Below are positions 3,001 through 22,163 of a DNA stretch of 64,000 nt, piece by piece. The notes under the pieces are model-generated. The model was not told where the DNA came from and did not search any database. It saw only the letters and a program-made list of their open reading frames with translations. Each line of letters begins with the position of its first letter. The first letter of the stretch is position 1. Both the position numbers and the translations under genes were made by a program. The DNA is from an uncultured Candidatus Saccharibacteria bacterium (GTDB lineage Bacteria; Patescibacteriota; Minisyncoccia; UBA6257): positions 128,001 to 192,000 of the forward strand of contig CAYZJA010000001.1 of the NCBI GenBank assembly GCA_964479005.1, read 5' to 3'.

Positions 3001-3470
3001 TCCTTATACTTTTCTTCAATTATCTTTTTTTCTTTTTCTACTCTTTTATGATGTTTTTCCAATTCTTCTGATATTTCAATTTTGTTTTTTAAAAAATAAT
3101 TATAAATCGCCTCTTTTAGGGAATCGGCAGCTAAAATCGAACAATGGAGCTTAAAAGGTGGCAAAGGTTTACCCAATTTGTTTATTAAGTCTTCTTTTGC
3201 TATCTTTAATACTTTTTCAATTTTCTTGCCCTTTACTAAGGTAGTAAGTAAACTGGTATTGGCGATAGCAACAACGCAACCTAAGGTTTCGAATTTTATA
3301 TCTTTGATAATCTTTCCGCCTTTTTTATTTTCTCCGATTTTCAAATAAATATTCATTATATCACCACAAAGAAAATTACCAGCACTACCTGCGCCGTCGG
3401 GATTTTTAATTTTACCCACATTCCTCGGTTTTTTAAAATGTTTAATTATTTCTTTTGAATAAATTGCCAT
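2991..3470 (-). CDS. iscU: Fe-S cluster scaffold protein NifU/IscU
   Basis: 'PRNVGKI…GAGSAGNFLCGDIMNIYLKI…FETLGCVVAIANTSL…LHCSILAADSL' carries the three conserved Cys and matches IscU. Confidence 0.85.
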   Translation of the reverse strand: MAIYSKEIIKHFKKPRNVGKIKNPDGAGSAGNFLCGDIMNIYLKIGENKKGGKIIKDIKFETLGCVVAIANTSLLTTLVKGKKIEKVLKIAKEDLINKLGKPLPPFKLHCSILAADSLKEAIYNYFLKNKIEISEELEKHHKRVEKEKKIIEEKYKEWN

Positions 3471-3474
3471 GAAT

Positions 3475-4641
3475 TTATTTTTTAAATGGAGATATTTTTC
3501 TTAATTTTTTTATGGCTTTTGACAGTATTTTAAGCAGATAATTAATATCTTGTTCTGTAGTCCATCTTCCTATTGTTAATCTCAAAGAACTATGTGCTTG
3601 TTCTGGTCGTAATCCGCATGCCAAAAGAATATGGCTAGGTTCTAATTTTTCAGAAGAACAGGCAGAACCAGTAGAAGCGGCAATTCCATAGGAGTTTAAA
3701 TTCATTACAATAGATTCACCTTCAACATAAGAAAACCAAAAATTAGCATTATTAGGCAATCGTTTTTTGCCATGGCCATTAAGATGAGAATCTGGTATTT
3801 TCTTCAAAACTTCATTAATTAGCTTATCTCTTAACTTGATTTGTCTTTTTGATTCTTTTTTCATTTCTTTTTCACAGATTTCTATTGCTTTTCCAAACCC
3901 TACAATTGCCGGAACATTAACAGTTGATGCTCTTAATCCAAATTCATGGCCTCCGCCGTGAATTAATGGTTCTATTTTTGTTCCTTTTTTAACATATAAC
4001 AAAGCCGCGCCTTTTGGCCCATAGATTTTATGTGAAGAAGCAGTTAATAAATTAACTTTCATTTTCTGTACATCAAGAGGCATTTTTCCAAAACTTTGGA
4101 CTGCGTCAGTATGAAAATATACTTTTTTCTTTTCACAGATTTTTCCTATTTTTTCAATTGGTTCAATAGTTCCTATCTCATTGCTCCCATGAATAATTGA
4201 TACTAATATTGTATCTTTTCTTATGGCTTTTTCTATTTCTTTTGGATCGATCATGCCATATTTATTGACTTTTATTTTTGTAAGCTCAAAACCTTGTTTT
4301 TCTAACCATTCAGCGCTGTTTAAAACGCAGCTATGTTCAATAGAGGAAATAATAATGTGTTTGCCCTTGTTTTGGTTAGCAAAAGCTATTCCCTTAATAG
4401 CAAGATTATTACTTTCTGTTGCTGAGCTTGTAAAGATTATTTCATTTTTATTTTTCGCATTAAGGACTTTTGACATTATTGAGCGGCTTTTTTCCAGAGC
4501 TTTTTTTGCTTCTTCACCAAAACTATGCAAAGAAACAGAATTCCCAAATTTTTCTGTAAAATAAGGAAGCATCGCCTTTAATACGCGAGAATCAACAGGA
4601 GTAGTAGCAGCATAATCCAAATATGTTTTTGTAATTTTCAT
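3475..4641 (-). CDS. iscS: cysteine desulfurase (NifS/IscS class V aminotransferase)
   Basis: PLP-lysine region 'SSHKIYGPKGAALLYVKKG' and C-terminal 'STGSACSS' active-site Cys loop. Operon with iscU and mnmA. Confidence 0.9.
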   Translation of the reverse strand: MKITKTYLDYAATTPVDSRVLKAMLPYFTEKFGNSVSLHSFGEEAKKALEKSRSIMSKVLNAKNKNEIIFTSSATESNNLAIKGIAFANQNKGKHIIISSIEHSCVLNSAEWLEKQGFELTKIKVNKYGMIDPKEIEKAIRKDTILVSIIHGSNEIGTIEPIEKIGKICEKKKVYFHTDAVQSFGKMPLDVQKMKVNLLTASSHKIYGPKGAALLYVKKGTKIEPLIHGGGHEFGLRASTVNVPAIVGFGKAIEICEKEMKKESKRQIKLRDKLINEVLKKIPDSHLNGHGKKRLPNNANFWFSYVEGESIVMNLNSYGIAASTGSACSSEKLEPSHILLACGLRPEQAHSSLRLTIGRWTTEQDINYLLKILSKAIKKLRKISPFKK

Positions 4642-4713
4642 AATTCAATCAATTTTAGCACAAAGAAAATGAGTTTACAATTCTTATAATTTCTGTTAAT
4701 TTATATAAAGAAC

Positions 4714-4785
4714 GCCGGGGTAACTCAGTGGTAGAGTAGCTGTTTCGTAAACAGCAAGTCGCGAGTTCGAATCTCGCCTCCGGCT
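4714..4785 (+). tRNA. tRNA-Thr (anticodon CGU)
   Basis: Cloverleaf: acceptor GCCGGGG/CTCCGGC; D-arm ACTC-AGTGGTA-GAGT; anticodon stem GCTGT/ACAGC with loop TTCGTAA; T-arm GCGAG-TTCGAAT-CTCGC. Confidence 0.8.
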
Positions 4786-4801
4786 CAGTAATTTTTATTC
4801 C

Positions 4802-4829
4802 TTGACTTGATTTTACTTTGCTCTATAAT
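4802..4829 (+). promoter_or_regulatory. sigma70-like promoter (TTGACT-16-TATAAT)
   Basis: cTTGACTtgattttactttgctcTATAAT lies just upstream of an AAGGAGG SD and the ATG at 4871. Confidence 0.45.
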
Positions 4830-4870
4830 TATGCATTAGGGTAATGGCAGGAAAAAAGGAGGTGTTTGTT

Positions 4871-5212
4871 ATGAGAATTAAAAGAACAATCTCTGGACCA
4901 AAAAGAAACACCCCCTCTACTTATGGACAGGAACTTTCTATGGCCAAAAACGTTGTGGAAAGTACATTAAGTAGTAAAAATAAGCAACTGATAGAATATA
5001 TTTTATCAGTTGCTAAATTGAAAATTAGAGGCGATAATTTTTTCGCTACTAAGATAAAAAAACTTTCAGATAGGGTAATGATAAACGGGGGTGTTTTAAT
5101 GAAAAAAACCAGGAGAATCAATCTTTACATTTACAACATGGATTTAAGGTCAACGCAAGAATTGATTGATAAAGCCCGAAGTATTTTAGAGGTAAATAAA
5201 AATGCAGCTTAA
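4871..5212 (+). CDS. hypothetical protein
   Basis: ORF with a strong SD (AAGGAGG at 4855-4861, 9-nt spacer to the ATG at 4871); the upstream ATG at 4844 has no SD. No family recognised. It sits where rplK/rplA would normally precede rplJ. Confidence 0.35.
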   Translation: MRIKRTISGPKRNTPSTYGQELSMAKNVVESTLSSKNKQLIEYILSVAKLKIRGDNFFATKIKKLSDRVMINGGVLMKKTRRINLYIYNMDLRSTQELIDKARSILEVNKNAA

Positions 5213-5410
5213 TAAATTAACAAACAAAGTAAAACAATACATCCTGCCATTGCCTTACCCTACTTACTTGACAAAAAAATTAGATTCTATATACTTAAGT
5301 AAAGTTTCCCAAGACATCAGGCAGCGATTAAGCATAAGGCCTGGTAAGGAATAAATTTAATGTTTTTATATTCTATCTGTGGGAAACCACAGATTTTTAA
5401 TTATTTTTTT

Positions 5411-5929
5411 ATGATTTCTAAAGAAAAAAAGGAACAAATTATTAAAGAATTATCAGAACAGATAAAAAAAGCCAAGGCAATTTATTTTGCCAAATTTTTA
5501 GGACTAAAAGTTTCTGAAATGAATGAATTACGCCAAGAATTGAAAAAAGATAATGCTAAAGCGAGAGTAGTAAAAAAGAACCTGGCTAAAATTGTTTTTT
5601 CTCAGAAAGGTTATAAAGACGAGATTTCTAATGATGAAGCAAATTCTTTTATGGTTAATTTTGCTTTTGATGATCCGATTAGCACAGCTAAAGTACTTTG
5701 GAATTTTTCCAAAAAGAATGATAAATTTCAAATTTTGGGAGGAGTAACAGACGGAGTGTTCTTAGACGCAGAAAAAGTAATAAGATTAGCAAAGATACCA
5801 TCAAAAGATATACTTTTAGGTCGATTAGTTGGTTCAATAGCTTCTCCAATACAACGATTATTATATGTCTTAAATGGAAATATTCAGAAATTAGTTGTGG
5901 TATTGGAAGGCATAAAAGCAACAAAATAA
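5411..5929 (+). CDS. rplJ: 50S ribosomal protein L10
   Basis: 'ISKEKKEQIIKELSEQIKKAKAIYFAKFLGLKVSEMNELRQELKK…ARVVKKNLAKIVF' matches the L10 N-terminal region. Start placed at the ATG at 5411; the track's 5360 start adds non-L10 residues. Confidence 0.8.
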   Translation: MISKEKKEQIIKELSEQIKKAKAIYFAKFLGLKVSEMNELRQELKKDNAKARVVKKNLAKIVFSQKGYKDEISNDEANSFMVNFAFDDPISTAKVLWNFSKKNDKFQILGGVTDGVFLDAEKVIRLAKIPSKDILLGRLVGSIASPIQRLLYVLNGNIQKLVVVLEGIKATK

Positions 5930-5959
5930 TTCATTTAATAATTTAGTAATATAATTATC

Positions 5960-6394
5960 ATGGCAGAAAAAAAAGAAGAAAAAAAAGAGGAAAAGAAAGA
6001 AAAAAAAGTTTCTGAAAAATTACAGGAAATAATGAAAAAAGTTGAGGAATTGACCGTTATAGAATTGGCAGATTTAGTTAAGGCATTAGAAGATAAATTC
6101 GGTGTTTCTGCTGCTCCTCAAGCAGTAGCCTCAGCTGGCGCAGCTGGCGTTGGCGAAGGTGAAGAGAGAGCTGAAGAAAAAAAAGAAACAGTTTCTGTAA
6201 TTCTTAAAGATGCTGGTCAGGCAAAAGTGCAAATAATCAAGGAAATAAAGGAAATTATGGGTTTGGGGCTGAAAGAAGCAAAAGATTTAGTAGATGCTGC
6301 TCCAAAAGCGTTAAAAGAGAATATTTCTGTGTCTGAAGCAGAAGAAATTAAGAAAAAATTAGAAGAAGCTGGCGCTACAGTAGAGATAAAATAA
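5960..6394 (+). CDS. rplL: 50S ribosomal protein L7/L12 with Lys/Glu-rich N-terminal extension
   Basis: '[23 protein letters not shown]…' and the C-terminal domain '[56 protein letters not shown]' are diagnostic. Preceded by a (KEEKK)n extension. Confidence 0.85.
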
Positions 6395-6418
6395 TACGAA
6401 AGTGTAAAAGCGAAAAGT

Positions 6419-6492
6419 GCGCGTGTAGCTCAGTTGGTTAGAGCGTACGATTCACATTCGTAAGGTCTCTGGTTCGAATCCAGACACGCGCA
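6419..6492 (+). tRNA. tRNA-Val (anticodon CAC)
   Basis: Acceptor GCGCGTG/CACGCGC; D-arm GCTC-AGTTGGTTA-GAGC; anticodon stem TACGA/TCGTA with loop TTCACAT; T-arm TCTGG-TTCGAAT-CCAGA. Confidence 0.8.
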
Positions 6493-6610
6493 CTGGTAAT
6501 TTCAAGTTCTTGACTAATAGTTAAAGGTTGTTATACTTTAAATGTAGAAGAAAATTAAATAAAAAAGGTCGATAAAACTTTAAAATAATTATAATTGGAA
6601 TTTTAAAAAT

Positions 6611-6811
6611 ATGAATAAAACCTGGTTAATCATAGCACTTGCAGTATTAGTAGTGGTTATTATTATGATCGTTCGTAGTGCAGGAGCGCCAACTGATGTT
6701 CCTGAAACAACAACTACTACTGAGGCAGTTGTAGATGAAGTTTTGCCTTTAGAAGGTGAAACAGTCGAAGATGAAGTTTCAGAAGATGAAGCAGTGGTTC
6801 CTGTTGAATAG
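6611..6811 (+). CDS. small single-TM protein with acidic Thr/Glu-rich tail
   Basis: 66 aa. One hydrophobic helix (LIIALAVLVVVIIMIV) followed by a TTTTE…DE-rich tail. Has its own promoter (TTGACT-16-TATACT at ~6513-6545) and a terminator immediately downstream. Confidence 0.4.
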   Translation: MNKTWLIIALAVLVVVIIMIVRSAGAPTDVPETTTTTEAVVDEVLPLEGETVEDEVSEDEAVVPVE

Positions 6812-6823
6812 ACGATTTTTAAA

Positions 6824-6858
6824 AAGACCTGTTATATTTGATATAGCAGGTCTTTTTC
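6824..6858 (+). terminator. intrinsic terminator
   Basis: aaAGACCTGttatatttgatatagCAGGTCTttttctt: a GC-containing stem followed by a T-run. Confidence 0.6.
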
Positions 6859-6867
6859 TTTATACAT

Positions 6868-6916
6868 AAAGTTATCCACAATGGGACTTGACAAGATTTA
6901 AATGTTTGCTATACTA
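6868..6916 (+). promoter_or_regulatory. conserved strong promoter module (DnaA-box-like 9-mer + -35 + extended -10)
   Basis: aagTTATCCACAatgggacTTGACAagatttaaatgtt TGcTATACT. 48 of 49 nt are identical to the minus-strand copy at 29082-29130. Core also shared with 10481-10515. Confidence 0.6.
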
Positions 6917-6919
6917 CGG

Positions 6920-6983
6920 ATGCTGTCGTTTGGAAGTATTTGTTAGCTTGCTAATGGATATGGAAGAGTGGCAGCATTTTTTT
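6920..6983 (+). ncRNA. candidate structured small RNA, copy 1 (promoter-to-terminator unit)
   Basis: AUGCUGUCG…UGGCAGCAU forms a 9-bp outer stem around an inner GUUAG-CUUG-CUAAU hairpin, ending in U7. Both stems are kept in copy 2 by compensatory substitutions. Confidence 0.45.
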
Positions 6984-7212
6984 ATACTTACATAATAACA
7001 AAAGATACGAAGAATTGTCCTTCATATTTTTGATTGACTTTATTAATAAGACGTGATATAGTAAAAATGCTCTTAATTGAGCATTTTTTTGTACTTTGAC
7101 ATTTAAAATATATAGCCGTAACAGGGAAAATTCTTTGTTATTGGAGATAAAAGATAGATTATTAAATGATTTGATTAGTAAAAAATAAATTTAAATAAAG
7201 GAGGAAAGAAAG

Positions 7213-7926
7213 ATGAAAAGGAAGTTAGTTATAGTTTTTGTTTTGTTTATTTTAGTGCTGAGTTTTACTCCAATTTTGAAACACTGGTCTTCAGAATGGG
7301 AATTGAATGCCCCAGTGTTATTGGATAGCGTTCAATTATCGAATGATTGCCGTATATTGTTGGGATCGTATTATTCAAGCGGGGTGATTTATCAGGATAA
7401 TTCTTTTGAATTTATTACTCATTCATCTGATGTGTTTTCTGATGTAAATGGTTTTAGGCCCTATCCTTGGGGAGGAGAAGTGTTTTCAGGAGAAATATCT
7501 TTTTTATGTTCCCTTGATAATTATACAGGATTCAGATCATTTATGATCCAGGGGAAACAGAAAGATGATCATGGCGCCATTGCTGTTCCTGGTTTACTGT
7601 CAAAACCAAATGTAGAATCAGGAGAATTATATTATCTATCGTTTTGGGTGAAATATGATATTCAAGAAGGAGGATTTAGGCTTACACAACAATTCTTTCG
7701 TAAGCAAGACAGCGAATATCCTCATTATGCTTGCTATGGTTCTTTGATTAAAGGTAATAGTAATAAACGCTGGGAGTATGTAGGTTTAATTGTTCAGGCA
7801 CCAATTGATGCTTGGAAAGGAGATCCAGTATTAGAATTGAAAGGCAAGGGATTTGTTTTAGTTGATGATGTTTATTTCGGAAAGATAGAAATAATAAAGG
7901 AGGTGAATAAAGGTGAGATTCTTTAG
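7213..7926 (+). CDS. secreted/membrane-anchored hypothetical protein (possible beta-sandwich carbohydrate-binding protein)
   Basis: Strong SD AAGGAGG, N-terminal signal/TM helix, and a stop overlapping the GTG start of the GT2 gene. Function is inferred only from operon context. Confidence 0.4.
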   Translation: MKRKLVIVFVLFILVLSFTPILKHWSSEWELNAPVLLDSVQLSNDCRILLGSYYSSGVIYQDNSFEFITHSSDVFSDVNGFRPYPWGGEVFSGEISFLCSLDNYTGFRSFMIQGKQKDDHGAIAVPGLLSKPNVESGELYYLSFWVKYDIQEGGFRLTQQFFRKQDSEYPHYACYGSLIKGNSNKRWEYVGLIVQAPIDAWKGDPVLELKGKGFVLVDDVYFGKIEIIKEVNKGEIL

Positions 7927-10678: not shown

Positions 10679-10735
10679 ATATTAAAATTAATAAAAAAAA
10701 TAAATAAAAAAATAAAAATTAATAAAATAAAAAAA

Positions 10736-11998
10736 ATGAAAAAAATAATAACAATTTTAAGTACTTCCCTTTTGATGTTTGCTTTTGTAACTTCAGTTTC
10801 CGCAGCAGCTCCGAATTGGAATGTCAGTGGAACATGGATGGCAGAGCATGAGTTCGGGGGGAATACTTACTCTCATGTAAACAACATTGTTCAAGCACTA
10901 GACGGTTCCCTGACGGGGACCGGAGGATGGGATGGTACGCAAAACGGCATCCCCGTTGGTACTCCTAATACATGGGAGATAACCAACGGTTCGGTTTCTG
11001 GTAACAACATTCAATTTAACTACCAATACAATACCGTCGAGTTATGCGCCAAGGATGGAGGTATTGATGCAGTAATTAATGCTGACGGTTCTATGACTGG
11101 AACATGGCATGATGATTGTGGTACTGGACGAACTGGCGCATGGACAGTCCCAGCAGGTTCCGCAGTCTATTTAAGAACTGCAGAAATTACTTCTCCAACA
11201 TCAGGAGAAGAAGTTTCGGGAATGGTTTCATTTGATGCAATACTAACTGACAAAGATGGTGATGATAGTGTTCAATGGGCAGTTCGTCAGGGTACTTGCA
11301 CTGCAGGAATAGGAACAGTGTTTGGTAATGTAGATGGTAAATCAGATATCTACACTTGGGATCATGTCAATTTCCATGCATCAGCCGATACTTCTTCCTG
11401 GGCTCCTGGAAATTACTGTTTTGTCTTTAATCCCACAGAGAGTGCTGGAGATATAGCTATTAGAGAGACACGAGAGTTTATCCTAAAAGACACTGTAGCA
11501 CCATTGGTAACGATAGAAAGTCCTAGTGAGGGTGATGTTGTTTCTGGTACAGTTGAAATTTATGGAACTGTTGTAGAATACTATATGCTAAGTCACTACA
11601 ATATCTCGGTTTATCCAGGTGATGCCGACTTTAATGATTTCAGCAAAAGAATAGCTCAAGCAACTATTTATCGCACTACGGGTTTTAGTAATGAATTAAT
11701 TTTCGCATGGGATTCAACTGGATTTGAAGATGGCGAGTATCTAATTAGATTAGCTGCTAGAGACGCTGCTGGTAATCGTAGTTATGATGGCGATGCATAT
11801 CTAGGTGGTGATGATTCACAGCATGTGATTAGAGTAACTGTGAATAATATACCAGACCTAATTGGTCCACCGATTAATAAAGATCAATGTAAAAAAGATG
11901 GTTGGAAGATATTTGATAATCCAAGTTTTAAGAATCAGGGAGATTGTGTAAGTTATGTCCAGAGTAATGAAAATGCAAAAGGAAATAAAAATAAATAA
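10736..11998 (+). CDS. secreted protein with Ig-like beta-sandwich repeats
   Basis: Signal peptide 'MKKIITILSTSLLMFAFVTSVSAAAP'. Gly/Thr/Asp-rich beta-type composition. Noticeably GC-richer than its neighbours. A-rich leader with no SD. Confidence 0.5.
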   Translation: MKKIITILSTSLLMFAFVTSVSAAAPNWNVSGTWMAEHEFGGNTYSHVNNIVQALDGSLTGTGGWDGTQNGIPVGTPNTWEITNGSVSGNNIQFNYQYNTVELCAKDGGIDAVINADGSMTGTWHDDCGTGRTGAWTVPAGSAVYLRTAEITSPTSGEEVSGMVSFDAILTDKDGDDSVQWAVRQGTCTAGIGTVFGNVDGKSDIYTWDHVNFHASADTSSWAPGNYCFVFNPTESAGDIAIRETREFILKDTVAPLVTIESPSEGDVVSGTVEIYGTVVEYYMLSHYNISVYPGDADFNDFSKRIAQATIYRTTGFSNELIFAWDSTGFEDGEYLIRLAARDAAGNRSYDGDAYLGGDDSQHVIRVTVNNIPDLIGPPINKDQCKKDGWKIFDNPSFKNQGDCVSYVQSNENAKGNKNK

Positions 11999-12023
11999 AA
12001 AATAAATAAAAAAAATAAAAAAT

Positions 12024-13772
12024 ATGAATAAACAATTATTCTCTAAAACGATTTCACTTTTCTTAGTTTTTTCTTTGGTGTTCGTAGGTGTTTCAATATT
12101 TTCACCAAATAATATTGAAGCTAAAGGACAGAAACCAAATAACAAAATATCAATTTGTCATAGAACTAGTTCTGCTACTAATCCTTGGAATGTAATTAAT
12201 GTTAGTGTTAATGCTCAAGATGCTCACTTAGCTCATGGAGATTTTCTTTATGAAGGTAGTTATCCAGTGAATTCTAAAGAAGCAGAGGAATGGTGTGGCA
12301 TGACTAGATATACTTGTAATGAAAGTACTTGGCAATGTGTAATTGATAACCAAGGTCAATATTCAAGTTATGATGATTGTTCAACTGTTTGTCAGGAACC
12401 AATGGCAACTGTAACAATTTGTAAATATGACGAAGAAAGGAATCCTTTAAGTGGATGGAAAATGATTTTGAAAGGGGATTTGCAAGACCAAGTAACTGTT
12501 TTTCCTGATGGGTCAGCATATTTGTCAGGAGATTTACCATTAGAAGATTATTTATTAATGGCTTCTGGTCAATATGTTTATAGGCCTGGAACTTTAGGGG
12601 CTGAATATTCTGATGCTGGCTATACTAAGAGGAATTGTCCAGGAGATGCTACTTATTTATGTAGTGGTCCCTATACCCCATGGTTTAATGTTTTTGATAT
12701 TATAGGTATTCATAAAGGATGGTTGGGGATTATGGTTAATGACGCCGCAACTAATTGGGGTTCTTACTTTAACTCTGCTCATACTTATGCTCTGGGATAT
12801 CCTAATTATAGTGGTTCATTATCTTTTACAATTAAAGATGATGTGTATAGTGATAATTCAGGACAATTAAATGTTGATATTTATAAAGGATATACTGGGG
12901 AGACAGATGAAAATGGTTGTATAACCTTTAATGATGTTCCTTTGGAAACTTATTCTCTTGAGGAAATTCTTAAAGATGGATGGCAAAATGTTAGTGGTTT
13001 AGGACAGATTGTTATTGATGAATCTCAAGAAACTTTTGATGTGATTAATAGTGAAATTAAAAGCGAAAAAGAACTAGCATGCATAAATTCAGGTGGCACA
13101 GTTGGAACAGGTATATGCTGCAAAAGTGTAGAAGGTTTTCCAAATGATTGTGCTACAGGAGCCTGCGGTTGTTCTGCAGGAGATAGCCATGAAGTTCAGG
13201 TTTGTAATTGTCCAGCAGGCAAATGTTTTGATGGAAATTCCTGCGTAACAAAATGTGAAGAAGGAATTAATCTTCTTAAAAACGGTAGTTTCGAATATCC
13301 GGAAGTAACTAATACAAGCAAATGGCAGTTATTTCCATCAGGGACAGCTCTACTTGAATGGGTAGTTGGATGGGTTAGCGCTGCTCCATCAGACCCTCCA
13401 ACAATTGAAATACAGAAAGGCGTAGTAGTTTCTCCTAGTAATGGACTTCAAAGCATTGAATTAGATTCAGAAGCTCCAACCTATATTTCTCAAGCAGTTA
13501 ATACAGAATCTGGCTATGGATATAAATTAAGCTTTGATTTTGCAGCCAGGCCTAATACTTCAGAAGAAGATAATAAATTAGAGGTTTGGGCTGATAGTAT
13601 TCTTAAAGATAGTATTAGCAGCAATACATCTTGGCAAACAAAAACATATAATTTTAATGCTACTTCTAACCTTACGGAAATCAAATTCGTGGATATAGGA
13701 ATTCCTAATACCGATTCAATGGGTACATTATTAGATAATGTTAAATTAGAATGTGTTCCGCCGGTTCTGTAA
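12024..13772 (+). CDS. secreted surface protein (SpaA/Cna-B-like domain + C-terminal lectin-like domain)
   Basis: Signal peptide. The 'TVTICKYDEERNPLSGWKMILKGD…' domain and the C-terminal 'NGSFEYPEVT…LDNVKLECVP' domain are both paralogous to parts of the next gene. Confidence 0.55.
   Translation: MNKQLFSKTISLFLVFSLVFVGVSIFSPNNIEAKGQKPNNKISICHRTSSATNPWNVINVSVNAQDAHLAHGDFLYEGSYPVNSKEAEEWCGMTRYTCNESTWQCVIDNQGQYSSYDDCSTVCQEPMATVTICKYDEERNPLSGWKMILKGDLQDQVTVFPDGSAYLSGDLPLEDYLLMASGQYVYRPGTLGAEYSDAGYTKRNCPGDATYLCSGPYTPWFNVFDIIGIHKGWLGIMVNDAATNWGSYFNSAHTYALGYPNYSGSLSFTIKDDVYSDNSGQLNVDIYKGYTGETDENGCITFNDVPLETYSLEEILKDGWQNVSGLGQIVIDESQETFDVINSEIKSEKELACINSGGTVGTGICCKSVEGFPNDCATGACGCSAGDSHEVQVCNCPAGKCFDGNSCVTKCEEGINLLKNGSFEYPEVTNTSKWQLFPSGTALLEWVVGWVSAAPSDPPTIEIQKGVVVSPSNGLQSIELDSEAPTYISQAVNTESGYGYKLSFDFAARPNTSEEDNKLEVWADSILKDSISSNTSWQTKTYNFNATSNLTEIKFVDIGIPNTDSMGTLLDNVKLECVPPVL
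12560..12742. repeat. inter-paralog DNA repeat, copy 1
   Basis: ~180 nt, >90% identical to 16548-16730, with perfect runs of 46, 40 and 26 nt (e.g. tattctgatgctggctatactaagaggaattgtccaggagatgct). Confidence 0.8.
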
Positions 13773-13878
13773 GTTATAAATAATATCCGGCAATTACAAA
13801 AGAAAAAGTTGATAGGATTTAATGGCGAATTAACCGTTCATTTTAAATAAAAGATTAAAAAGTTAAATATATAAAAAA

Positions 13879-16800
13879 ATGAAAAAACAATTTTTCTCTA
13901 AAACATTTTCAATTTTCTTGGCACTTTCTTTTGTACTTTCTAATAGCGCAATGTTAGTGCCATTACAAGCTGAAGCTTGTGAGGAAGAAATATGCGAAGA
14001 CGTTATTGTGGTAAGTAATATAGAAGATAAGGTTTTTGATATTGCAGAAACTCTTCCCGGTGAAGCAGCTGTTCTTGCTTGGGATGATCATCCGGCATGG
14101 ACAGCGTATATTGAAGGCGCAAATTGGATTTGGAAGACAGAATATGTAGAAAATCCTGATCAAGACGAAACATATATATTTAAAAAAGATTTTGATATTG
14201 TTGGCATTCCAGATTCTGCAACATTAAAAGTTGCAACTGATAATTCGTATAGTGTTTGGGTTAACAATGTTTTGATTGGAGAAGTTATAACTGAAGATAA
14301 TCACAGTTCAACAACCCAAGATCAATATAATAATATCGTTGACTTTCATACCGGTTCAAATGAAATTAAATTTGAAGTTAAAAACTGGGCAGGAAATGCG
14401 TCACCGAAATTAAATCCTGCAGGTCTTTTGTATAGACTTGAGATTGTAAGATCTTCTTGTGAACCTCAATGTATACCTCAATCTTCTATAGAAACAGACT
14501 GTACTAATGGTTTAGATGATGACTGCGATGGTTTTATTGATAGTGAAGATTCTGATTGTCAGATGTTAATAATGGCTTCTAAAGTAATTTGTGATAATGA
14601 ATCAGATTTACCTAATTGGGGGACAGGATCTGGAGTTGACTATCCTTCATATAACATTGATCAAAACACAGCTTCGGATTATGTAGCTGAACATTCTGGT
14701 TGTTATTTAGCTTCTAATTGGTTTTTTCAATGGGGACAACAAGGTTCTGATGATTTTGGAAAAGACTTTTATGGAGAAGCTGGCAATGGCTACACTACTT
14801 TTGGGCCAACAAATGAAAATGGAGTAGCTAGTACAACAGTGGATTCTGTTACCGGTAGTTATTTGGAATTAAGGGAAGTTCTGCAGCAAGGTTATATTCC
14901 TTTTACGTATGACCAATCACATAAATCTAATGATAATAATATTTCTGCAGAATTTTATTGCCACAATGATATTCTCAATTATGATAACTGGGATTATATA
15001 AAAAATCCTCAATTAGGAATTACTCATTATTGCGTTGGATTTAATGCATTAATCGAACAAGAAGAACCAGAACCTGTTTGTGGAAATGAAATTATAGAAA
15101 CTGGTGAACAATGTGATCCACCTTCAACCACTGCTCCTAATTCTACTGATGAATATTTCTGTGACCAAAATTGTAATTTAGTTCCTATCTATCATTCTCT
15201 GGATGGTTGTCCAAAAAATCAAATCCTAGAATTTATTCAGTCTTATCAAATTCATTCAACTAGTACGACAGAAGTTATTATTCCTGTGAGTGGTAGCGAT
15301 ACATATAAGTTTGAAGTTAAAGGAACTTTTTATCCTACTCAAAATGGAAAAAATGAGAATTTCCTATCAGATGCCGCCTATACGACTGAAGATGGCTGGG
15401 TTTCAACTTCTACAAAATACGGAATTAAAGGCATACCACCTGATTATGCTGCCCATGCTTTATTAGGTGATTTAGGATTAGGGGCTGGAGTAATTAATTG
15501 GGGAGATTATGATTCTTCTCATGAATATGATTTCTCTTACACAATTCCTTCAGGCGCTACTTCTACTCAATTTGTGATAGGTGATAGATGGGATAATTGG
15601 TTTATACCAGATGATATTAGTTGGAATAATCAAGGCGGAATGAAAGATAATCTTGGAAATTTGACTTTAGATGTTTATGAGTGTAAGCCAATCCAAGCTA
15701 GATGTGATCCTAAGTTAGAATTAGTTATGAATGGCGATTTTGAGAGTCCTGAAGTGACTGATCTAGTAAAAAAATGGGGTATTTTTCCATCAGGGACAAC
15801 CGATTTAGAATGGTTAATTAATTGGAGAGAAATTTGGCCTTCAGCACCAAAAATAGCAAATCTTGAAATTCAGAAAAGTTATTATACTCCAGTAATAGCT
15901 CCTGTAGTTCCTGGAGATCCAGATCAATATGCTGAGTTAGATACTGATTGGCATGGTCCAGGTGGACCTTCTGGTGAACCAGCCTCAGTAGCTATTTCTC
16001 AAGATATTCCAACAATTATAGGGGAAACTTATAGATTAAGTTTTGATTTTTCACCACGACCATATACTGATTTAGAACAGAATCATTTAAAGGGTTTTGT
16101 TGATAGCGCTGAATTATTTGATATTTCTGCTGATGGTTCTGGTTTAACAGATACTTTATGGAATCAATATTCTGATAATTTTGTTGCTACAAGTTCAATA
16201 ACAAACATTAAATTTACTGATTATGGTACACCAGACTCTTTAGGCACTTTCTTAGATAATGTTAGCGTAAGATGTGTTCCTCAGGACGAACCTACTATGT
16301 ATCATTGTAATGAGGAATGGCAATGTATAGCAGATCCTGAAGGTGAATATAATACTGATAATTGTGACAATCAATGTATTAAACCTGGAACATCCACAGT
16401 TACTATTTGTAAATATAATGAACAAGAAGAACCTTTAAGAGGTTGGAAGATGATACTTAAAGGTGATAGGTATGATACAGTGCCTGTTTTTCCAGATGGG
16501 CAAAATTATTCTTCAAATCCTTTGCTATTAGGTGATTACTTAATTCAGGCTTCTGGTCAATATTTATATAGACCAGGAACACCTGGCGCTGAGTATTCTG
16601 ATGCTGGCTATACTAAGAGGAATTGTCCAGGAGATGCTGATTATTTATGCAGTGGAGATTATACCCCATGGTTTAATGTTTTTGATATTATAGGTATTCA
16701 TCAAGGATGGTTGGGGATTATGGTTAATGATAATCTTACTGATTGGGGGTATTTTACTTCTGACCATACTTATACTCTTGGCTATCCTGGTTATAGTGGT

Positions 16801-18201
16801 TCGTTCACTTTTACTATAAAGGATGATGTATATTCAGATAATAGTGGATCATTAACAGTTAAAATCTATAAAGGCTATGTAGGGGAAACTGGAGAAAAAG
16901 GATGTGTTACATTTAATGGTGTTCCTTATGGCGAGTATATAGTTGATGAAGATCTTCAAAGTGGTTGGATAAATCAAGATGGTTTAGGAAATGTTACAGT
17001 AGATGACCTAGAAGAAACATTTGATGTTGTCAATATTCCACCAGAAGGACAGATAGGTTCTTTAACTGTTTGTAAATATAGAGATCACGAACCATTTGGG
17101 GAATACAATACAGGTATTGATACACCTCTAACTTGGGAGATGAGAATTATTGGACCTAATAGTTATGATCAATTGTACGAAACTGATCCTCAGAATGGAT
17201 GCAAAACAATAAATAATTTAGAATATGGCCAATATGTAGTTTCTGAAGAATTGAAGATTGGTTGGGATCAAACTTATCCTCTTGATCCTAATACCCATAC
17301 CATTGATATAAATGGCGGTAATTCTAATCCATCAGTATATTTCTTGAATTATAAAACAATTGATAATGGTGGAACAAAATATGCTTGTAATGCAGAAGGG
17401 CAATGTATAGAAAATGAAGGGGGTAATTATACCACTTCTAATTGTGATGAAGAATGTAGACCATATCCATATACTTGTAATTCATCTACCTCAGAATGTG
17501 TACGTGATGTTCATGGCCAATTTGGTTTATTGCAAGGTTGTGAGGATGCTTGTAGGGTATCTACTCCATTAGGAGGTCAATATGCAATATTGGGAACAGT
17601 TTTGGGTGCTGCTACTGAAAAGGAAGAAGAACCTTGCGGTCTTTATCTTTTGGAATACATAAAGCTTGGAGGTGATAATAATCCTGAGGAAGTGAAGAAA
17701 TTACAATATTTCTTAAATGAATATCTTGGCATTAATTTAGAGATAACAGGAGTTTATAATCAAGCTACTTATCAAGAAGTTATGAGATTCCAGCTTCTTT
17801 TGAACGATGAAATTTTGGCTCCTTGGGTTGAAGTTAATTGTCTTCCATCTAGTAATATAGCTACTGGTTATGTTTATCGAACAACACAATGGAAAATAAA
17901 TATGATTGTTTGTCCAGAATTGAACCTTCCAGTACCGAATTTATATGATGAAACTTGTAAATATATTAGTCTATATCCAGGAGAAGGTGTAGTTGCTGGA
18001 GCAGCTACTTCTACAGTGGGTGGAACTAATGGAACTACCACAACTACCTCAACTACAACTCCTGAAACAATAGGAGATACTACAACAACTGTTCCTCAAG
18101 ATACTGGGGATGAGCAGTCACAAAATTGGATTTGGGTTTTGATTGGACTTTTAGTGATTGGCGGCGCAGCTTATTTGGTTTATCAAACTAGACAAGTATA
18201 A
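13879..18201 (+). CDS. giant (1440 aa) cell-surface protein with C-terminal TM anchor
   Basis: Signal peptide, multiple Cys-rich beta domains, two regions ~70% identical in protein to the 12024 gene product, a Thr-rich stalk (TTTTSTTTPETIGDTTTT), and a C-terminal helix 'WIWVLIGLLVIGGAAYLVY'. Confidence 0.6.
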   Translation: MKKQFFSKTFSIFLALSFVLSNSAMLVPLQAEACEEEICEDVIVVSNIEDKVFDIAETLPGEAAVLAWDDHPAWTAYIEGANWIWKTEYVENPDQDETYIFKKDFDIVGIPDSATLKVATDNSYSVWVNNVLIGEVITEDNHSSTTQDQYNNIVDFHTGSNEIKFEVKNWAGNASPKLNPAGLLYRLEIVRSSCEPQCIPQSSIETDCTNGLDDDCDGFIDSEDSDCQMLIMASKVICDNESDLPNWGTGSGVDYPSYNIDQNTASDYVAEHSGCYLASNWFFQWGQQGSDDFGKDFYGEAGNGYTTFGPTNENGVASTTVDSVTGSYLELREVLQQGYIPFTYDQSHKSNDNNISAEFYCHNDILNYDNWDYIKNPQLGITHYCVGFNALIEQEEPEPVCGNEIIETGEQCDPPSTTAPNSTDEYFCDQNCNLVPIYHSLDGCPKNQILEFIQSYQIHSTSTTEVIIPVSGSDTYKFEVKGTFYPTQNGKNENFLSDAAYTTEDGWVSTSTKYGIKGIPPDYAAHALLGDLGLGAGVINWGDYDSSHEYDFSYTIPSGATSTQFVIGDRWDNWFIPDDISWNNQGGMKDNLGNLTLDVYECKPIQARCDPKLELVMNGDFESPEVTDLVKKWGIFPSGTTDLEWLINWREIWPSAPKIANLEIQKSYYTPVIAPVVPGDPDQYAELDTDWHGPGGPSGEPASVAISQDIPTIIGETYRLSFDFSPRPYTDLEQNHLKGFVDSAELFDISADGSGLTDTLWNQYSDNFVATSSITNIKFTDYGTPDSLGTFLDNVSVRCVPQDEPTMYHCNEEWQCIADPEGEYNTDNCDNQCIKPGTSTVTICKYNEQEEPLRGWKMILKGDRYDTVPVFPDGQNYSSNPLLLGDYLIQASGQYLYRPGTPGAEYSDAGYTKRNCPGDADYLCSGDYTPWFNVFDIIGIHQGWLGIMVNDNLTDWGYFTSDHTYTLGYPGYSGSFTFTIKDDVYSDNSGSLTVKIYKGYVGETGEKGCVTFNGVPYGEYIVDEDLQSGWINQDGLGNVTVDDLEETFDVVNIPPEGQIGSLTVCKYRDHEPFGEYNTGIDTPLTWEMRIIGPNSYDQLYETDPQNGCKTINNLEYGQYVVSEELKIGWDQTYPLDPNTHTIDINGGNSNPSVYFLNYKTIDNGGTKYACNAEGQCIENEGGNYTTSNCDEECRPYPYTCNSSTSECVRDVHGQFGLLQGCEDACRVSTPLGGQYAILGTVLGAATEKEEEPCGLYLLEYIKLGGDNNPEEVKKLQYFLNEYLGINLEITGVYNQATYQEVMRFQLLLNDEILAPWVEVNCLPSSNIATGYVYRTTQWKINMIVCPELNLPVPNLYDETCKYISLYPGEGVVAGAATSTVGGTNGTTTTTSTTTPETIGDTTTTVPQDTGDEQSQNWIWVLIGLLVIGGAAYLVYQTRQV
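16548..16730. repeat. inter-paralog DNA repeat, copy 2
   Basis: Matches 12560-12742. Confidence 0.8.
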
Positions 18202-18373
18202 ATATCAGACAAGATTGAATCAAAAAACAGTGCTGATTTAGCATTTTTTGCGTCAATTTTTAGTAGTTGGACCTAAATATGAAATTTAGGTAGTAAAAAC
18301 TAATAGGTCGATCTTTGGTAAAAACCAAAGTAAAAAAATCAAAAATAACAAATTAAATTAATTAAAAATTAAA

Positions 18374-18889
18374 ATGAAAAAGATATTAATTGGTTTAACG
18401 ATCATTACATTGGCTGCAATGGTTGCTAGTCCTGCTATGGCTTACTACTGGCCAATGCCAATGGAATCCAGTGACGTAACAGTCAATAATGATAGTTACT
18501 CGAGGATTCGCAATAACGTAACAGTTGTTGCTAAAACCGGCGATAACACTGCTAATACTGGCTCGGCAAGTTTCGGTGGTTTGGGTAGTACAATTCAGAC
18601 TGGTAATGCTGTCGCTGAAGCGACAGTAGTAACTGTTGCCAACACAAATTACACCAGAATTAAGGCTCCTTGCACTAATTGCGACGGCGATGTCACTGTT
18701 AACAATGATGATAGTGACGCTTTTGTCAGGAATAGAGTTAGGGTTATTGCCGACACCGGCGATAACACTGCTAATACTGGCTCGGCATGTTTAGGTGGTG
18801 AGGGTAGTTTGATTGTAACAGGCAGTGCATGGGCTGAAGGAAATGTTGTTACTGTTACTAACACTAACATAACCAGAATTCGCAGATAG
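18374..18889 (+). CDS. secreted protein with two tandem ~50-aa repeats
   Basis: Signal peptide. Repeats 'NNVTVVAKTGDNTANTGSASFGGLGSTIQTGNAVAEATVVTVANTNYTRI' and 'NRVRVIADTGDNTANTGSACLGGEGSLIVTGSAWAEGNVVTVTNTNITRI'. Confidence 0.55.
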   Translation: MKKILIGLTIITLAAMVASPAMAYYWPMPMESSDVTVNNDSYSRIRNNVTVVAKTGDNTANTGSASFGGLGSTIQTGNAVAEATVVTVANTNYTRIKAPCTNCDGDVTVNNDDSDAFVRNRVRVIADTGDNTANTGSACLGGEGSLIVTGSAWAEGNVVTVTNTNITRIRR

Positions 18890-18994: not shown

Positions 18995-19549
18995 ATGAAA
19001 AATCAAATATCAAAAATTCCGGTTTTAGTTGCTTTTCTGACAATTATTCCGTTAGTTTGCGGGGCTTTTTCCTTTGAAGAACCTTTTGATGATTTTGAAG
19101 AATGGATTTCGGATCTTAGTGATGGAATGAGTAGTACTCATATAATAAATGAAGTTAAGGTTTTAACAAATACTGGCAATAATGTAATTAATGGCGAAAT
19201 AACAGAAGGTGAAGCAAAAAGCCGGATTTTTATTAAAAACGTTATTAATGGAAAAGAAATAGACCCAATTGAGATTGAATCTGATAAAAACGAAATTAAA
19301 GTGGAAAGCCAAATTAAAACAGAAAATGGCAAAGTTATTATTCAGAGAGAAATTCAAATTGATTCTGAAAAAAGCACTGAAAATTATGAGGTTGATTTGG
19401 AAAATTCAGAAACTGAGACAGAAAGTGAAGGAATATTGAAAGACGGTTTAGATTCCTTTCAAGAAGGATGGTTAGATTTTATCGAAGATTTAAGGTCTTT
19501 TTTTGACGATATCTTTAATATTTTTAAATTAAATGCAAGAATCAAATAG
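18995..19549 (+). CDS. secreted acidic protein carrying one copy of the same repeat
   Basis: Start chosen at the ATG at 18995, which gives the signal peptide 'MKNQISKIPVLVAFLTIIPLVCGAF'. 'INEVKVLTNTGNNVINGEITEGEAKSRIFIKN' matches the repeat. Confidence 0.45.
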   Translation: MKNQISKIPVLVAFLTIIPLVCGAFSFEEPFDDFEEWISDLSDGMSSTHIINEVKVLTNTGNNVINGEITEGEAKSRIFIKNVINGKEIDPIEIESDKNEIKVESQIKTENGKVIIQREIQIDSEKSTENYEVDLENSETETESEGILKDGLDSFQEGWLDFIEDLRSFFDDIFNIFKLNARIK

Positions 19550-22163
19550 ATTAAAAAACTTTATTTTAATTCCTTTGCTAATCATAAGTTTGGTAGGTTT
19601 TAATTTTTATCCCTTTTTGGTTTTTGCAGAAGGAGATGGAGTTGTCACCGAAGGAGTAGTAATTGAGAATAATGAAGACACGCAGATTGTTACTGGAGAT
19701 TCTAATACTGAAGTTAATCTTGAAAACACTGTAAATTCTAATCTTACCGAATTAAACGGGGATGATTCTTCAGACGGAGAATCAGAACCTCTTGAGAATT
19801 TAGAATGTGAGGAAATTGATGTTACTACTTCAAGCACTGATGTTGTTTTTAATATTGCCAATGATAATGAGGCAGAAGTAGAGAATAATATCGAGACTGA
19901 GGAAGAAACTGGAGATAATGAAATTGATCAAAGTGAAGGAGATGCCATCATTGACACCGGAGATATAAATTTAGTCGTTGGCGTAGTTAATACAGTCAAC
20001 ACTAATGTTACTGGTTCTGATTTTTCTCAGCTTTTGTTAAACGTTTTTGAAAATTTAGAAGAAGATATTGATTTATCTGACCAATTAATGGGAATTTCTT
20101 CTTTGGAAAATTGTTATTCACCAATGGAATGTTTTGATCTTAATATTGTTAATGATAACCAAGGAAGTATTGAAAATAATATTTTAGTTGATGCATCAAC
20201 TGGCGAAAATACTGCCCAGAGTATTGATGGAGACGCAATCATTAAGACCGGTAACGCTAATGTTGCAGTTAATGCTTTAAATATTCTCAATACCGATATT
20301 ATCGGCTCAAACTGGACTCAGCTTATTATCAATGTATTTGATAATTGGACTGGCGATTTAGTTTTTCCCGGAAAAGGAAAAATGCAAGGATTTTTAAATC
20401 AAAAACCGCGCTCCTGTGAAGGAGATTGTGGAGATACTAATATAGTTAATTCTAATGAAGGCGAGATTGAAAATAAAGTCCATGTTCAGGCTAATACTGG
20501 CGAAAATCAATCTAATGGAAATTCAAGTATTATCCGCACTGGCCAAGCTAATGCTGAAGTTAATCTTTTAAATATTGCCAATACTAATTTATATGATAAG
20601 AATTGGTTTTTTGTAGGAATTAATAATTTTGGCAACTGGAAAGGAAATGTATTTAGTTTGCCTCCTGGTTTGGAAATGTCAGGAGATTCTAATAGTGTTC
20701 AAATTTATAATCTTGAACTAGAAGATGTTAATAATCCAACAGAAGATTTTGATAATAACACCAGTGGTAATTCTTTGAATATAGTCAATGAAAATACCGG
20801 GATTATTAAAAATAATATTATAGTTAATCTTTCGACTGGCGAGAACTCAGCTATTTCTTCTAACGGTCAGACAACGATAGAGACCGGAGATGCCAATACC
20901 CTAACTAACATTGCCAATCTTTTAAATTCAAATATTGTCGGCAGTAATTGGCTTTTGGGAACTGTAAATATTTTAGGAGATTGGAATGGAGATTTGGCTT
21001 TTGGCCGTCCTGATAATTGGATTGGTGGGAGTGTTGCCTCTTCTCATAATCCGGTTTCTCCTGGAGAAACTATAACTTATACTTTGACATATATTAACAA
21101 TGGGGATGCTGATGCTACACAAGTAATGATTATTGATGATTACGATGAGGCGCATCTTTCTATTATAGATACAGGTGGTGGAATTATCATTGATAATCCT
21201 GGCGAGATTCAGTGGGACATTGGAACAATTGCAGTAGGCGGTTCCGGTTCAGTTTCTTATTCTGCTGTAATTGATCCAGAAGTACCTTATGGTACTACCT
21301 ATCTTACTAATCAGGCGACAATTGATAGTTTTGAAGAAGATTTTAATAATGAAGATAACATTGAAATTTTATCAATTGAAGTGTATAGACCTTTGCCAGT
21401 TGCTTCAGTTATGTTGGGTTTTTCTTCTCCCTCGTCTTCGCCAAAATTGGAAATTAGCAAAACTCACAATGTAGATGATTTCGTTTATTCAGGAAGCGAT
21501 GTTGATTTTAAGATAGTGCTATATAATGATAGCGATAGTTCTGCTTATGATGTTGTCGTTTATGATACTTTACGGAACGATGCATCTGAAGCGATCAGTA
21601 CTTCCCATTGGGATTTGGGAGAAGTTTTCCCTCACGAAGAAATAATTATTGACTATACGGCAGCCATAGGTTCTGAGTTTCCAGCCGGCTTTTATACTAA
21701 TATAGCTGAGGCTCTAGGTTTTGATAGCCAGGGAAATCCAGTTAGTTCTCCTGAGGCCTCTAGCACAATTGAGGTTAGGGCGGCAGAAGTTCCTCCTGAT
21801 GAAACAGAGGAAGTGGAGGAAATTTCTCTTGAGGAGATAGAAAAGGAATTAAAAGAAATGAAAGACAAGATAAGAAAAATAAGAGAAGAGATAGAAAGAC
21901 TTTCTCATCCGTCTCCAGTCGAAGAATTTACAAGTTCTCTTCCAAAACAATTAATATCAGAGGTTTTGGCTGCTGAAGAACCTTTTGTTCCCAAAGAAAA
22001 AATTAATTTGCCTGAAAGAGGTTTGGCTCCGTTGCTTTTGGCTAGCTTAAGAGAGATAGGGGGAACGGATTGGATGATGATTTTGGCCATTTTTTGCCTT
22101 ATTGGGTTAATTATAATTGGAATTAGAGAGTGGGAATTAATTCGAAAAAAGAAAAAGAGATAA
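19533..22163 (+). CDS. large surface protein: 4 copies of the ~50-aa repeat + DUF11/CARDB-like domains + C-terminal TM anchor
   Basis: Four 'IENN(I/V)xVxAxTGxNxAxSxxGxAxIxTGxAxxxVNxLNIxNTxxxGSNW' units. 'PGETITYTLTYINNGDADATQVMIIDDYD' is DUF11-like. Coiled-coil 'EEIEKELKEMKDKIRKIREEIERL'. Terminal helix 'WMMILAIFCLIGLIIIGI'. Confidence 0.55.
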   Translation: MQESNRLKNFILIPLLIISLVGFNFYPFLVFAEGDGVVTEGVVIENNEDTQIVTGDSNTEVNLENTVNSNLTELNGDDSSDGESEPLENLECEEIDVTTSSTDVVFNIANDNEAEVENNIETEEETGDNEIDQSEGDAIIDTGDINLVVGVVNTVNTNVTGSDFSQLLLNVFENLEEDIDLSDQLMGISSLENCYSPMECFDLNIVNDNQGSIENNILVDASTGENTAQSIDGDAIIKTGNANVAVNALNILNTDIIGSNWTQLIINVFDNWTGDLVFPGKGKMQGFLNQKPRSCEGDCGDTNIVNSNEGEIENKVHVQANTGENQSNGNSSIIRTGQANAEVNLLNIANTNLYDKNWFFVGINNFGNWKGNVFSLPPGLEMSGDSNSVQIYNLELEDVNNPTEDFDNNTSGNSLNIVNENTGIIKNNIIVNLSTGENSAISSNGQTTIETGDANTLTNIANLLNSNIVGSNWLLGTVNILGDWNGDLAFGRPDNWIGGSVASSHNPVSPGETITYTLTYINNGDADATQVMIIDDYDEAHLSIIDTGGGIIIDNPGEIQWDIGTIAVGGSGSVSYSAVIDPEVPYGTTYLTNQATIDSFEEDFNNEDNIEILSIEVYRPLPVASVMLGFSSPSSSPKLEISKTHNVDDFVYSGSDVDFKIVLYNDSDSSAYDVVVYDTLRNDASEAISTSHWDLGEVFPHEEIIIDYTAAIGSEFPAGFYTNIAEALGFDSQGNPVSSPEASSTIEVRAAEVPPDETEEVEEISLEEIEKELKEMKDKIRKIREEIERLSHPSPVEEFTSSLPKQLISEVLAAEEPFVPKEKINLPERGLAPLLLASLREIGGTDWMMILAIFCLIGLIIIGIREWELIRKKKKR

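Follow-up and report, generated by a model that had tools for sequence, protein, structure and literature searches.

Two adjacent genes within a 64,000-nt stretch of contig CAYZJA010000001.1 (the window) share long runs of identical DNA, and the question raised by this locus is whether those runs record gene conversion that is still under way. The genes, which we call A (open reading frame (ORF) 12024-13772) and B (ORF 13879-18201), were previously interpreted from the sequence alone (hereafter the sequence-only reading) as giant tandem paralogs sharing two module types and undergoing ongoing conversion. Both ORFs and both shared module types were borne out by our analysis, although the word giant overstates the case for the 582-aa product of A. 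As set out below, the runs probably represent the conserved core of a lectin-type insert, overlaid by old swapping of segments between A and B, the two genes being ordinary adhesin-like paralogs of modular build and mosaic history. Older exchange between A and B in this family is well supported, and ongoing conversion in this genome is not demonstrated.

By exact-match search, the longest runs measured 45 nt (12606-12650 = 16594-16638), 42 nt (12672-12713 = 16660-16701) and 28 nt (12715-12742 = 16703-16730), so the earlier values of 46, 40 and 26 nt were essentially right. A further exact run of 16 nt was found at 12560-12575, and all long A-B runs lie at a constant offset of 3988 nt. A repeat search paired 12408-12707 with 16396-16695 (300 nt, 78% identity) and 12765-12942 with 16750-16927 (178 nt, 75%). 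Within 11500-18700, repeat families of at least 48 nt were confined to these two genes, two shorter families being probably due to chance. Over the whole of the first shared module, module X (TVTICK...FDVIN), A and B are 72% identical in protein and 75% identical in DNA, and BLASTP of X together with its 4-Cys linker gave 62% identity over 281 aa. The second, a DUF642 module (NG(S/D)FE...LDNV...CVP), is 41% identical in protein and 59% in DNA. Given that a 45-nt run is very improbable under a uniform identity of 75%, divergence is truly uneven along module X. When protein conservation is discounted by using silent sites alone, a modest excess is left.

For comparison, we used related loci from other genomes. 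Two of these, L003 (A of 591 aa, B of 1610 aa) and L004 (A of 763 aa, B split in two ORFs), hold syntenic A/B pairs. Further A orthologs were provided by L005 and L006, and B orthologs by L007 and L008, in which no A gene lies between the upstream gene and B; gene A is thus confined to some lineages. The A orthologs vary in their modules, with P0002 and P0003 possessing module Y, a lectin-type module also present in B, and P0006 lacking X. A degenerate-pattern scan of metagenome contigs yielded no A/B-type contigs beyond those already recovered. In L004, the B ortholog consists of two overlapping ORFs (2556-5129 and 5122-7410) with the break within module Y, part of which is missing; this split may reflect a frameshift or deletion, a recombination scar or an assembly error. 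The core comparison was performed on nine A and B copies from six loci, i.e., 36 pairs, in which A_win and B_win are the window copies and A_L5 and the like are copies from the related loci.

Across the core of the lectin insert (12606-12743), DNA identity was 75-95% for all pairs. The value for A_win-B_win was 93.5%, as compared with 95% for A_win-A_L6, 91% for B_win-A_L3 and 88% for A_L3-B_L7. At conserved degenerate codons, the fraction of positions using the same codon was 0.61-0.93 in the core and 0.58-0.70 elsewhere for A-B pairs. As all cross-genome and cross-paralog fractions are high, the core is conserved at silent sites throughout the family, and the runs therefore need no recent conversion tract. 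Codon bias was ruled out as the cause of this silent identity, since the fraction expected from genome codon usage is about the same in the core (0.51) and elsewhere (0.50). No RNA structure or overlapping ORF accounting for the silent-site conservation of the core was found; recurrent recombination or nucleotide-level selection may lie behind it.

Several observations nevertheless weigh against this interpretation and favor a recent A-B gene conversion, still ongoing in this genome, of which the three runs would be the footprint. In the core, A_win-B_win ranks first among the 36 pairs in same-codon fraction (37/40, 0.93), the counts for A_win and its orthologs ranging from 29/37 to 36/41. A silent-site scan of A_win-B_win detected 3 differences in 40 consecutive silent-capable codons vs 41/146 overall (p=0.007), the strongest local dip of 13 pairs, using a window size that was picked after the data had been seen. 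The number of synonymous substitutions per synonymous site (dS) in the core is 0.44 for A_win-B_win vs 0.75 for B_win-B_L7, the neighbor-joining (NJ) tree of the core unites A_win with B_win at 58% bootstrap, and the family demonstrably recombines.

The remaining tests point the other way. Same-codon counts in the core are nearly as high in cross-genome pairs as in the window pair (A_win-A_L6, 36/41; B_win-A_L3, 33/39; A_L3-B_L7, 33/38), and the core dS of A_win-B_L7, at 0.40, is about the same as that of the window pair. Longest-run tests on the silent sites of A_win-B_win gave p=0.07-0.08. The four sites exclusive to A_win and B_win are at noise level (1-6 for noise pairs), as against 23 for the orthologs B_win and B_L7, and the quartet A_win, A_L5 / B_win, B_L7 yielded 40 orthology, 8 concerted and 6 cross sites. 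Furthermore, nine A-B differences persist in the 138 nt of the core, and three assemblies of this region, described below, show no polymorphism. With the runs sitting in the most conserved core of the family and cross-genome pairs almost as similar, the claim that they indicate ongoing conversion was not supported, and we regard such conversion as possible but rather unlikely. A short conversion tract laid down in this lineage after it had parted from the L005 relative is likewise possible but rather unlikely, the evidence for a tract particular to this genome being moderate. Long runs arising among all other sequences from a unique patch in L004 made a GENECONV-like test on all polymorphic sites uninformative.

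Exchange between A and B earlier in the history of the family was apparent from NJ trees of successive segments of X. At the 5' end (12408-12483), B_win grouped with B_L3 and C_L4 (71% bootstrap). In the loop (12484-12545), by comparison, A_win, A_L5 and B_win formed a clade (99%). The core tree (12546-12760) joined A_L4 with C_L4 (86%) in addition to the pairing of A_win with B_win given above, and at the 3' end (12761-13049) B_win was placed with B_L7 (96%), with all B copies together (88%), a grouping by orthology. The loop and 3' end trees are thus discordant at 99% vs 96% bootstrap, in the manner of gene conversion. All 12 sites exclusive to A_win, A_L5 and B_win fall within 12484-12527. 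These three copies have a short "VFPDG" loop, and the loop is 5-6 codons longer in A and B of other genomes; since short and long loops occur in both A and B, each of the four possible pairings of gene type with loop type is represented.

Other measures agreed with these trees. In L003, core dS was 0.36 between paralogs vs 0.93 between B orthologs, and the relation was reversed in the 3' segment (1.19 vs 0.39). PHI-type permutation tests gave p<0.0005 for X and p=0.0005 for DUF642. Module typing divided the DUF642 modules into three types, and that of the L003 A gene matched the usual B type at 44/49 diagnostic sites, while that of the L008 B gene matched the A type at 41/49; A_L4 has a mosaic 3' end. 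These A-B exchanges look old rather than recent, because whole-module dS for A_win-B_win is ~0.7 and loop identity is 61-71%. In proposing tandem paralogs that exchange sequence, the sequence-only reading was therefore correct at the level of the family, as attested by the conflict of the loop and 3' end trees, the PHI-type tests and the DUF642 swaps.

The same data bear on the view that no conversion took place, and that protein-level purifying selection, along with preferred codons at critical residues, produced the runs. The core is indeed the most conserved protein segment of X, with 0.06-0.07 nonsynonymous substitutions per nonsynonymous site (dN) and many invariant residues, and its DNA is conserved across genomes. 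However, codon usage predicts no more same-codon identity in the core than elsewhere, and for the history of the family this view is contradicted by the tree conflict, by the four-gamete incompatibility of the loops (A-short, A-long, B-short, B-long), by the PHI-type p value and by the DUF642 swaps in L003 and L008. We consider selection acting on its own to be improbable.

Silent conservation of the core throughout the family, with no explanation in codon usage, could also signal an element acting at the nucleotide level, i.e., a structured RNA, a regulatory site or the template/variable-repeat pair of a diversity-generating retroelement. Yet both copies lie mid-gene in long ORFs, and we judge an element of this kind to be very improbable. 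Against a structured RNA or antisense element in the core, which we rejected, both copies and the antisense strand fold less stably than shuffled sequences (z=+1.6 to +2.0). Rfam returned no family at gathering score in the A/B region and only three tRNAs in the whole window. A retroelement pair was likewise rejected, because the mismatches in 12590-12760 are not adenine-specific (A>G, C>A, T>C, T>A, C>G); reverse transcriptase was not searched for.

On the reading that we favor, conserved core plus old swapping, the exact runs fall in the best-conserved core of the lectin insert, adjoining its DxxYxDNxG motif, and the DNA of this core is unusually conserved in every family member, across both genomes and paralogs. 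The central quarter of X (loop and core, ~12484-12760) probably underwent one or more past exchanges between the A and B lineages, and the family as a whole evolves by segmental and module-level recombination between tandem paralogs. A more far-reaching version, in which secreted A and anchored B form a two-partner segmental-exchange system, with the lectin loop/core and DUF642 modules repeatedly copied between the genes and the silent-conserved core serving as a recombination "landing pad", strikes us as unlikely. If it were true, an episymbiotic bacterium of the candidate phyla radiation (CPR) could re-tune its recognition of hosts or glycans.

Whether the runs could have been created during assembly was assessed using two further contigs. 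The exact A protein is also encoded on a 551,616-bp Joint Genome Institute (JGI) contig, L001 (sample 3300028837), and on an 11,099-bp contig, L002 (sample 3300005782), both of which are identical to the window across 12024-18201. They differ from it elsewhere, the only differences being intergenic single-nucleotide polymorphisms (SNPs) at 10709 and 10719 in both contigs and, in L001, changes in the gene at 19533; the three are thus separate assemblies. Nothing was found in favor of an assembly artefact. Collapse or chimerism of two repeats is contradicted by this identity over A and B alongside differences outside them, by exact runs of no more than 45 nt and by the same layout in the syntenic pairs of L003 and L004. 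We therefore reject assembly collapse, which is extremely improbable. The short-read hazard that had been anticipated is also small, since the runs are shorter than typical reads and the region was assembled identically three times. A search for mosaic alleles, proposed as a sign of conversion, came up empty, with zero variants in 12024-18201 among the three assemblies. The changes at 10709 and 10719 form a reciprocal A/T pair with a spacing of 10 nt and lie in the A/T-rich leader that precedes a 420-aa gene. Unlike A and B, the DUF11/CLIPPER-repeat surface protein encoded at 19533-22163 is a real between-assembly length variant, its length being 876 aa in the window vs 971 aa in L001 (17510-20425). 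The overlap of the BLAST blocks fits an internal tandem duplication of 285 nt (95 aa), and a few SNPs are present at 19892-19907.

We next consider what the shared modules are. In module X, a PA-IL/LecA-like lectin domain is set within a CnaB/SpaA pilin-type stalk domain. X has the seven-stranded prealbumin-like beta-sandwich fold of SpaA/CnaB, and the insert has the small jelly-roll beta-sandwich fold of PA-IL. The label lectin-like, which had been applied to the DUF642 module only, hence extends to the other shared module. The SpaA model PF17802 scored 24.8 bits with A, 26.9 with B and 27.7 with X alone, all above the gathering cut-off of 23.1, and the match is confined to the C-terminal third of X, C-terminal to the insert. 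A profile of the module alignment matched BcpA in the PDB (E=1.5e-6). The same profile weakly matched 6ygq_A (E=0.049 over 39 residues), with "D..dvysDNsgslevdiyk" aligned to DGKDQYKDNAGEFSVEVYR. Foldseek against the PDB gave weak CnaB matches only, and a sequence search of the PDB with the whole A and B proteins gave nothing. Sequence identity between the insert and the PA-IL/LecA family is 13-15%; Pfam PA-IL did not match the proteins at E<=1, and Pfam has no model for the whole composite module.

Several residues of both parts of X are strongly conserved. In A, K134, E314 (in a YxLxE context) and N342 occupy the positions of the CnaB isopeptide triad and form a putative triad; K134 and E314 (K10 and E190 in X numbering) are invariant among 23 homologs, and N342 (N218) is kept in at least 90% of them. 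In the homolog alignment, the lectin motif has invariant D272, D277 and N278 and a G280 that is kept in at least 90%. Module Y, which has no Pfam match, aligned to X by BLASTP with 24% identity over 138 aa (E=5e-4), "...DNLGNLTLDVYE" being aligned to "...DNSGQLNVDIYK".

As for the DUF642 module, PF04862 matched A with 52 bits against a cut-off of 27 (residues 416-575, profile positions 1-156/157). In B, it gave a partial match below the cut-off (21.5 bits, profile positions 67-156). The choice-of-anchor C model TIGR04362 scored 75.9 bits with A and 51.8 with B, both under its cut-off of 120, such that neither is placed in that family. PG_binding_1 (PF01471) scored 18.9 to 22.5 bits in B, just short of the cut-off of 23, and this family is precomputed for many homologs.

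From these assignments, A and B are modular, exported, lectin-rich proteins of a Patescibacteria (CPR) bacterium. A, in which no membrane anchor is visible, would be secreted or loosely attached, and B would be fixed in the membrane at its C-terminus, with a peptidoglycan-binding-like domain and a Thr-rich stalk preceding the anchor. Their function is most likely carbohydrate-mediated attachment to a host cell or polymer. Three points tell against this picture: the signal peptides and the B anchor were called by eye and the Thr-rich stalk by inspection, the organism was assigned solely through the source names of homologs, and the function was deduced from folds only.

The composite module is widespread. 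It was present in 58/134 proteins retrieved, and its representative clusters numbered 377 at E<=1e-30 and 1323 at E<=1e-10. The proteins that carry it are usually 800-3300 aa long and often have it in several copies, and the named homologs came from Patescibacteria, i.e., Minisyncoccia, Paceibacterota, Nealsonbacteria and Nomurabacteria. In the literature searched, we found no description of the combined CnaB-plus-LecA-like module, and nothing specific on CPR bacteria with DUF642, choice-of-anchor C or Patescibacteria surface lectins. A 3.8-kb contig labelled as a Deltaproteobacteria metagenome-assembled genome (L009, 1930-2184) matched the Cys-rich linker of A only (51% over residues 328-410); mis-binning of a CPR fragment or a wider distribution of the Cys-rich linker may account for this match.

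Relative to known systems, X resembles the CnaB/SpaA domains of Gram-positive pilins and of adhesins of the type termed microbial surface components recognizing adhesive matrix molecules (BcpA, SpaA, SdrD B repeats), with the difference that a lectin-type insert of ~120 residues lies between the scaffold strands. Unlike those adhesins, A and B showed neither an LPXTG sorting signal nor a sortase context, and the C-terminus of B is a plain hydrophobic anchor. Members of the PA-IL/LecA family (LecA of Pseudomonas aeruginosa, PllA, the EclA N-terminal domain) are free tetrameric lectins, whereas the domain is found here as an insert or as module Y in giant multidomain proteins. With regard to DUF642/choice-of-anchor C proteins, A matches PF04862 end to end and B matches its C-terminal two thirds, and the DUF642 of B is internal rather than beside a sorting signal. 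Tandem paralogs, discordant segment trees, mosaic patches and module swaps are features that A and B have in common with concerted evolution or segmental gene conversion of paralogous surface-protein genes. By contrast with the cassette systems pilE/pilS, vlsE and tprK, the locus has two full-length genes that are 75% identical, each with its own start and signal-peptide-like N-terminus; as there are only these two and no silent-cassette archive, it is not a case of cassette-type antigenic variation.

As an instance of gene conversion the locus is unremarkable, the phenomenon being well known. Its interest lies rather in the widespread, unannotated composite module that it shows, a pilin-type stalk plus a LecA-like lectin in the largest CPR surface proteins. 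Such modules have been shuffled between neighboring paralogs over evolutionary time and are concrete candidates for glycan binding. To our knowledge, the host-recognition molecules of CPR/Patescibacteria are largely unknown, and the A/B locus offers a modest lead to them.

The features of both genes are collected in Table 1. In order, A comprises a signal-peptide-like N-terminus, a conserved N-terminal module ("ICHR...HLAHGD"), a 4-Cys linker, X, a Cys-rich linker and DUF642. The N-terminus of B, which is also signal-peptide-like and similar to that of A, is followed by many beta-rich modules, including Y, DUF642, a 4-Cys linker and X, and then by a second SpaA-like domain, two more 4-Cys linkers, the PG_binding_1-like domain, the Thr-rich stalk and the hydrophobic anchor. 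A thus has a single 4-Cys linker and B has three (residues 806-836, 1164-1194 and 1190-1226 by BLASTP). The C-terminal hydrophobic stretch of B is kept in the orthologs P0019 and P0020. Because the module order differs (linker-X-Cys-rich-DUF642 in A, DUF642-linker-X in B), A is not a simple tandem copy of B. A scan of the 106-nt spacer between the two genes revealed no terminator-like site.

Table 1. Coordinates of genes A and B and of their modules in the window.
Feature	Position	Strand	Basis or remark
Gene A, 582 aa	12024..13772	+	ORF list; called as gene in two independent JGI assemblies
4-Cys linker of A, ~30 aa, YTCNESTWQCVIDNQGQYSSYDDCSTVCQ	12303..12395	+	Repeat families D3, D6; BLASTP to B
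Module X of A, aa 129-342: CnaB/SpaA prealbumin-like domain with lectin-type beta-sandwich inserted	12408..13049	+	
Variable loop of X in A, short "VFPDG" type	12484..12545	+	B partner 16472-16533; phylogeny conflicts with flanks
PA-IL/LecA-like insert of A, approximate, aa ~169-289; holds invariant D272, D277, N278, G280 motif "DDVYSDNSG"	12528..12890	+	
Lectin-insert core of A, with exact runs of 45, 42 and 28 nt	12606..12742	+	Exact-match search
DUF642 module of A, alpha type, aa 420-578	13281..13757	+	Pfam PF04862, TIGR04362, module typing
A-B intergenic spacer, 106 nt, A/T-rich	13773..13878	.	
Gene B, 1440 aa	13879..18201	+	ORF list, domain matches, internal comparisons
Module Y of B, aa ~440-615, stand-alone distant homolog of X lectin insert	15196..15723	+	BLASTP
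DUF642 module of B, gamma type, aa 618-800	15730..16278	+	Pfam, TIGR04362, module typing
Module X of B, aa 840-1052	16396..17034	+	Alignments; Pfam SpaA 26.9 bits
Lectin-insert core of B, partner of 12606-12742	16594..16730	+	Exact-match search
PG_binding_1-like segment of B, aa 1270-1305	17686..17793	+	PF01471 18.9 to 22.5 bits
C-terminal hydrophobic stretch of B, WIWVLIGLLVIGGAAYLVY, then QTRQV; presumed membrane anchor	18127..18198	+	Translation read

The neighborhood of A and B looks like a cell-surface locus, given that the products of the flanking genes are a family-2 glycosyltransferase, a GH113 enzyme, an Ig-like protein and DUF11-repeat proteins. In L007, the gene that precedes B (1-1242) and the 420-aa gene of the window (10736-11998) have a common C-terminal motif, "NK.QCKK.GWK...NPSFKNQGDCVSY.QSNE", and the L007 gene then extends into a LecA-like module that stands alone ("...FNILDDAYGDNSGSIHVKIYE"). 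Downstream of B, a 171-aa secreted protein without a Pfam match (18374-18889) displays an internal duplication of "VTVNND...TGDNTANTGSA...G.A.A...VVTV.NTN.TRI", and the 876-aa protein (19533-22163) has a motif like it in its N-terminal half, in a part that is likewise without a Pfam match.

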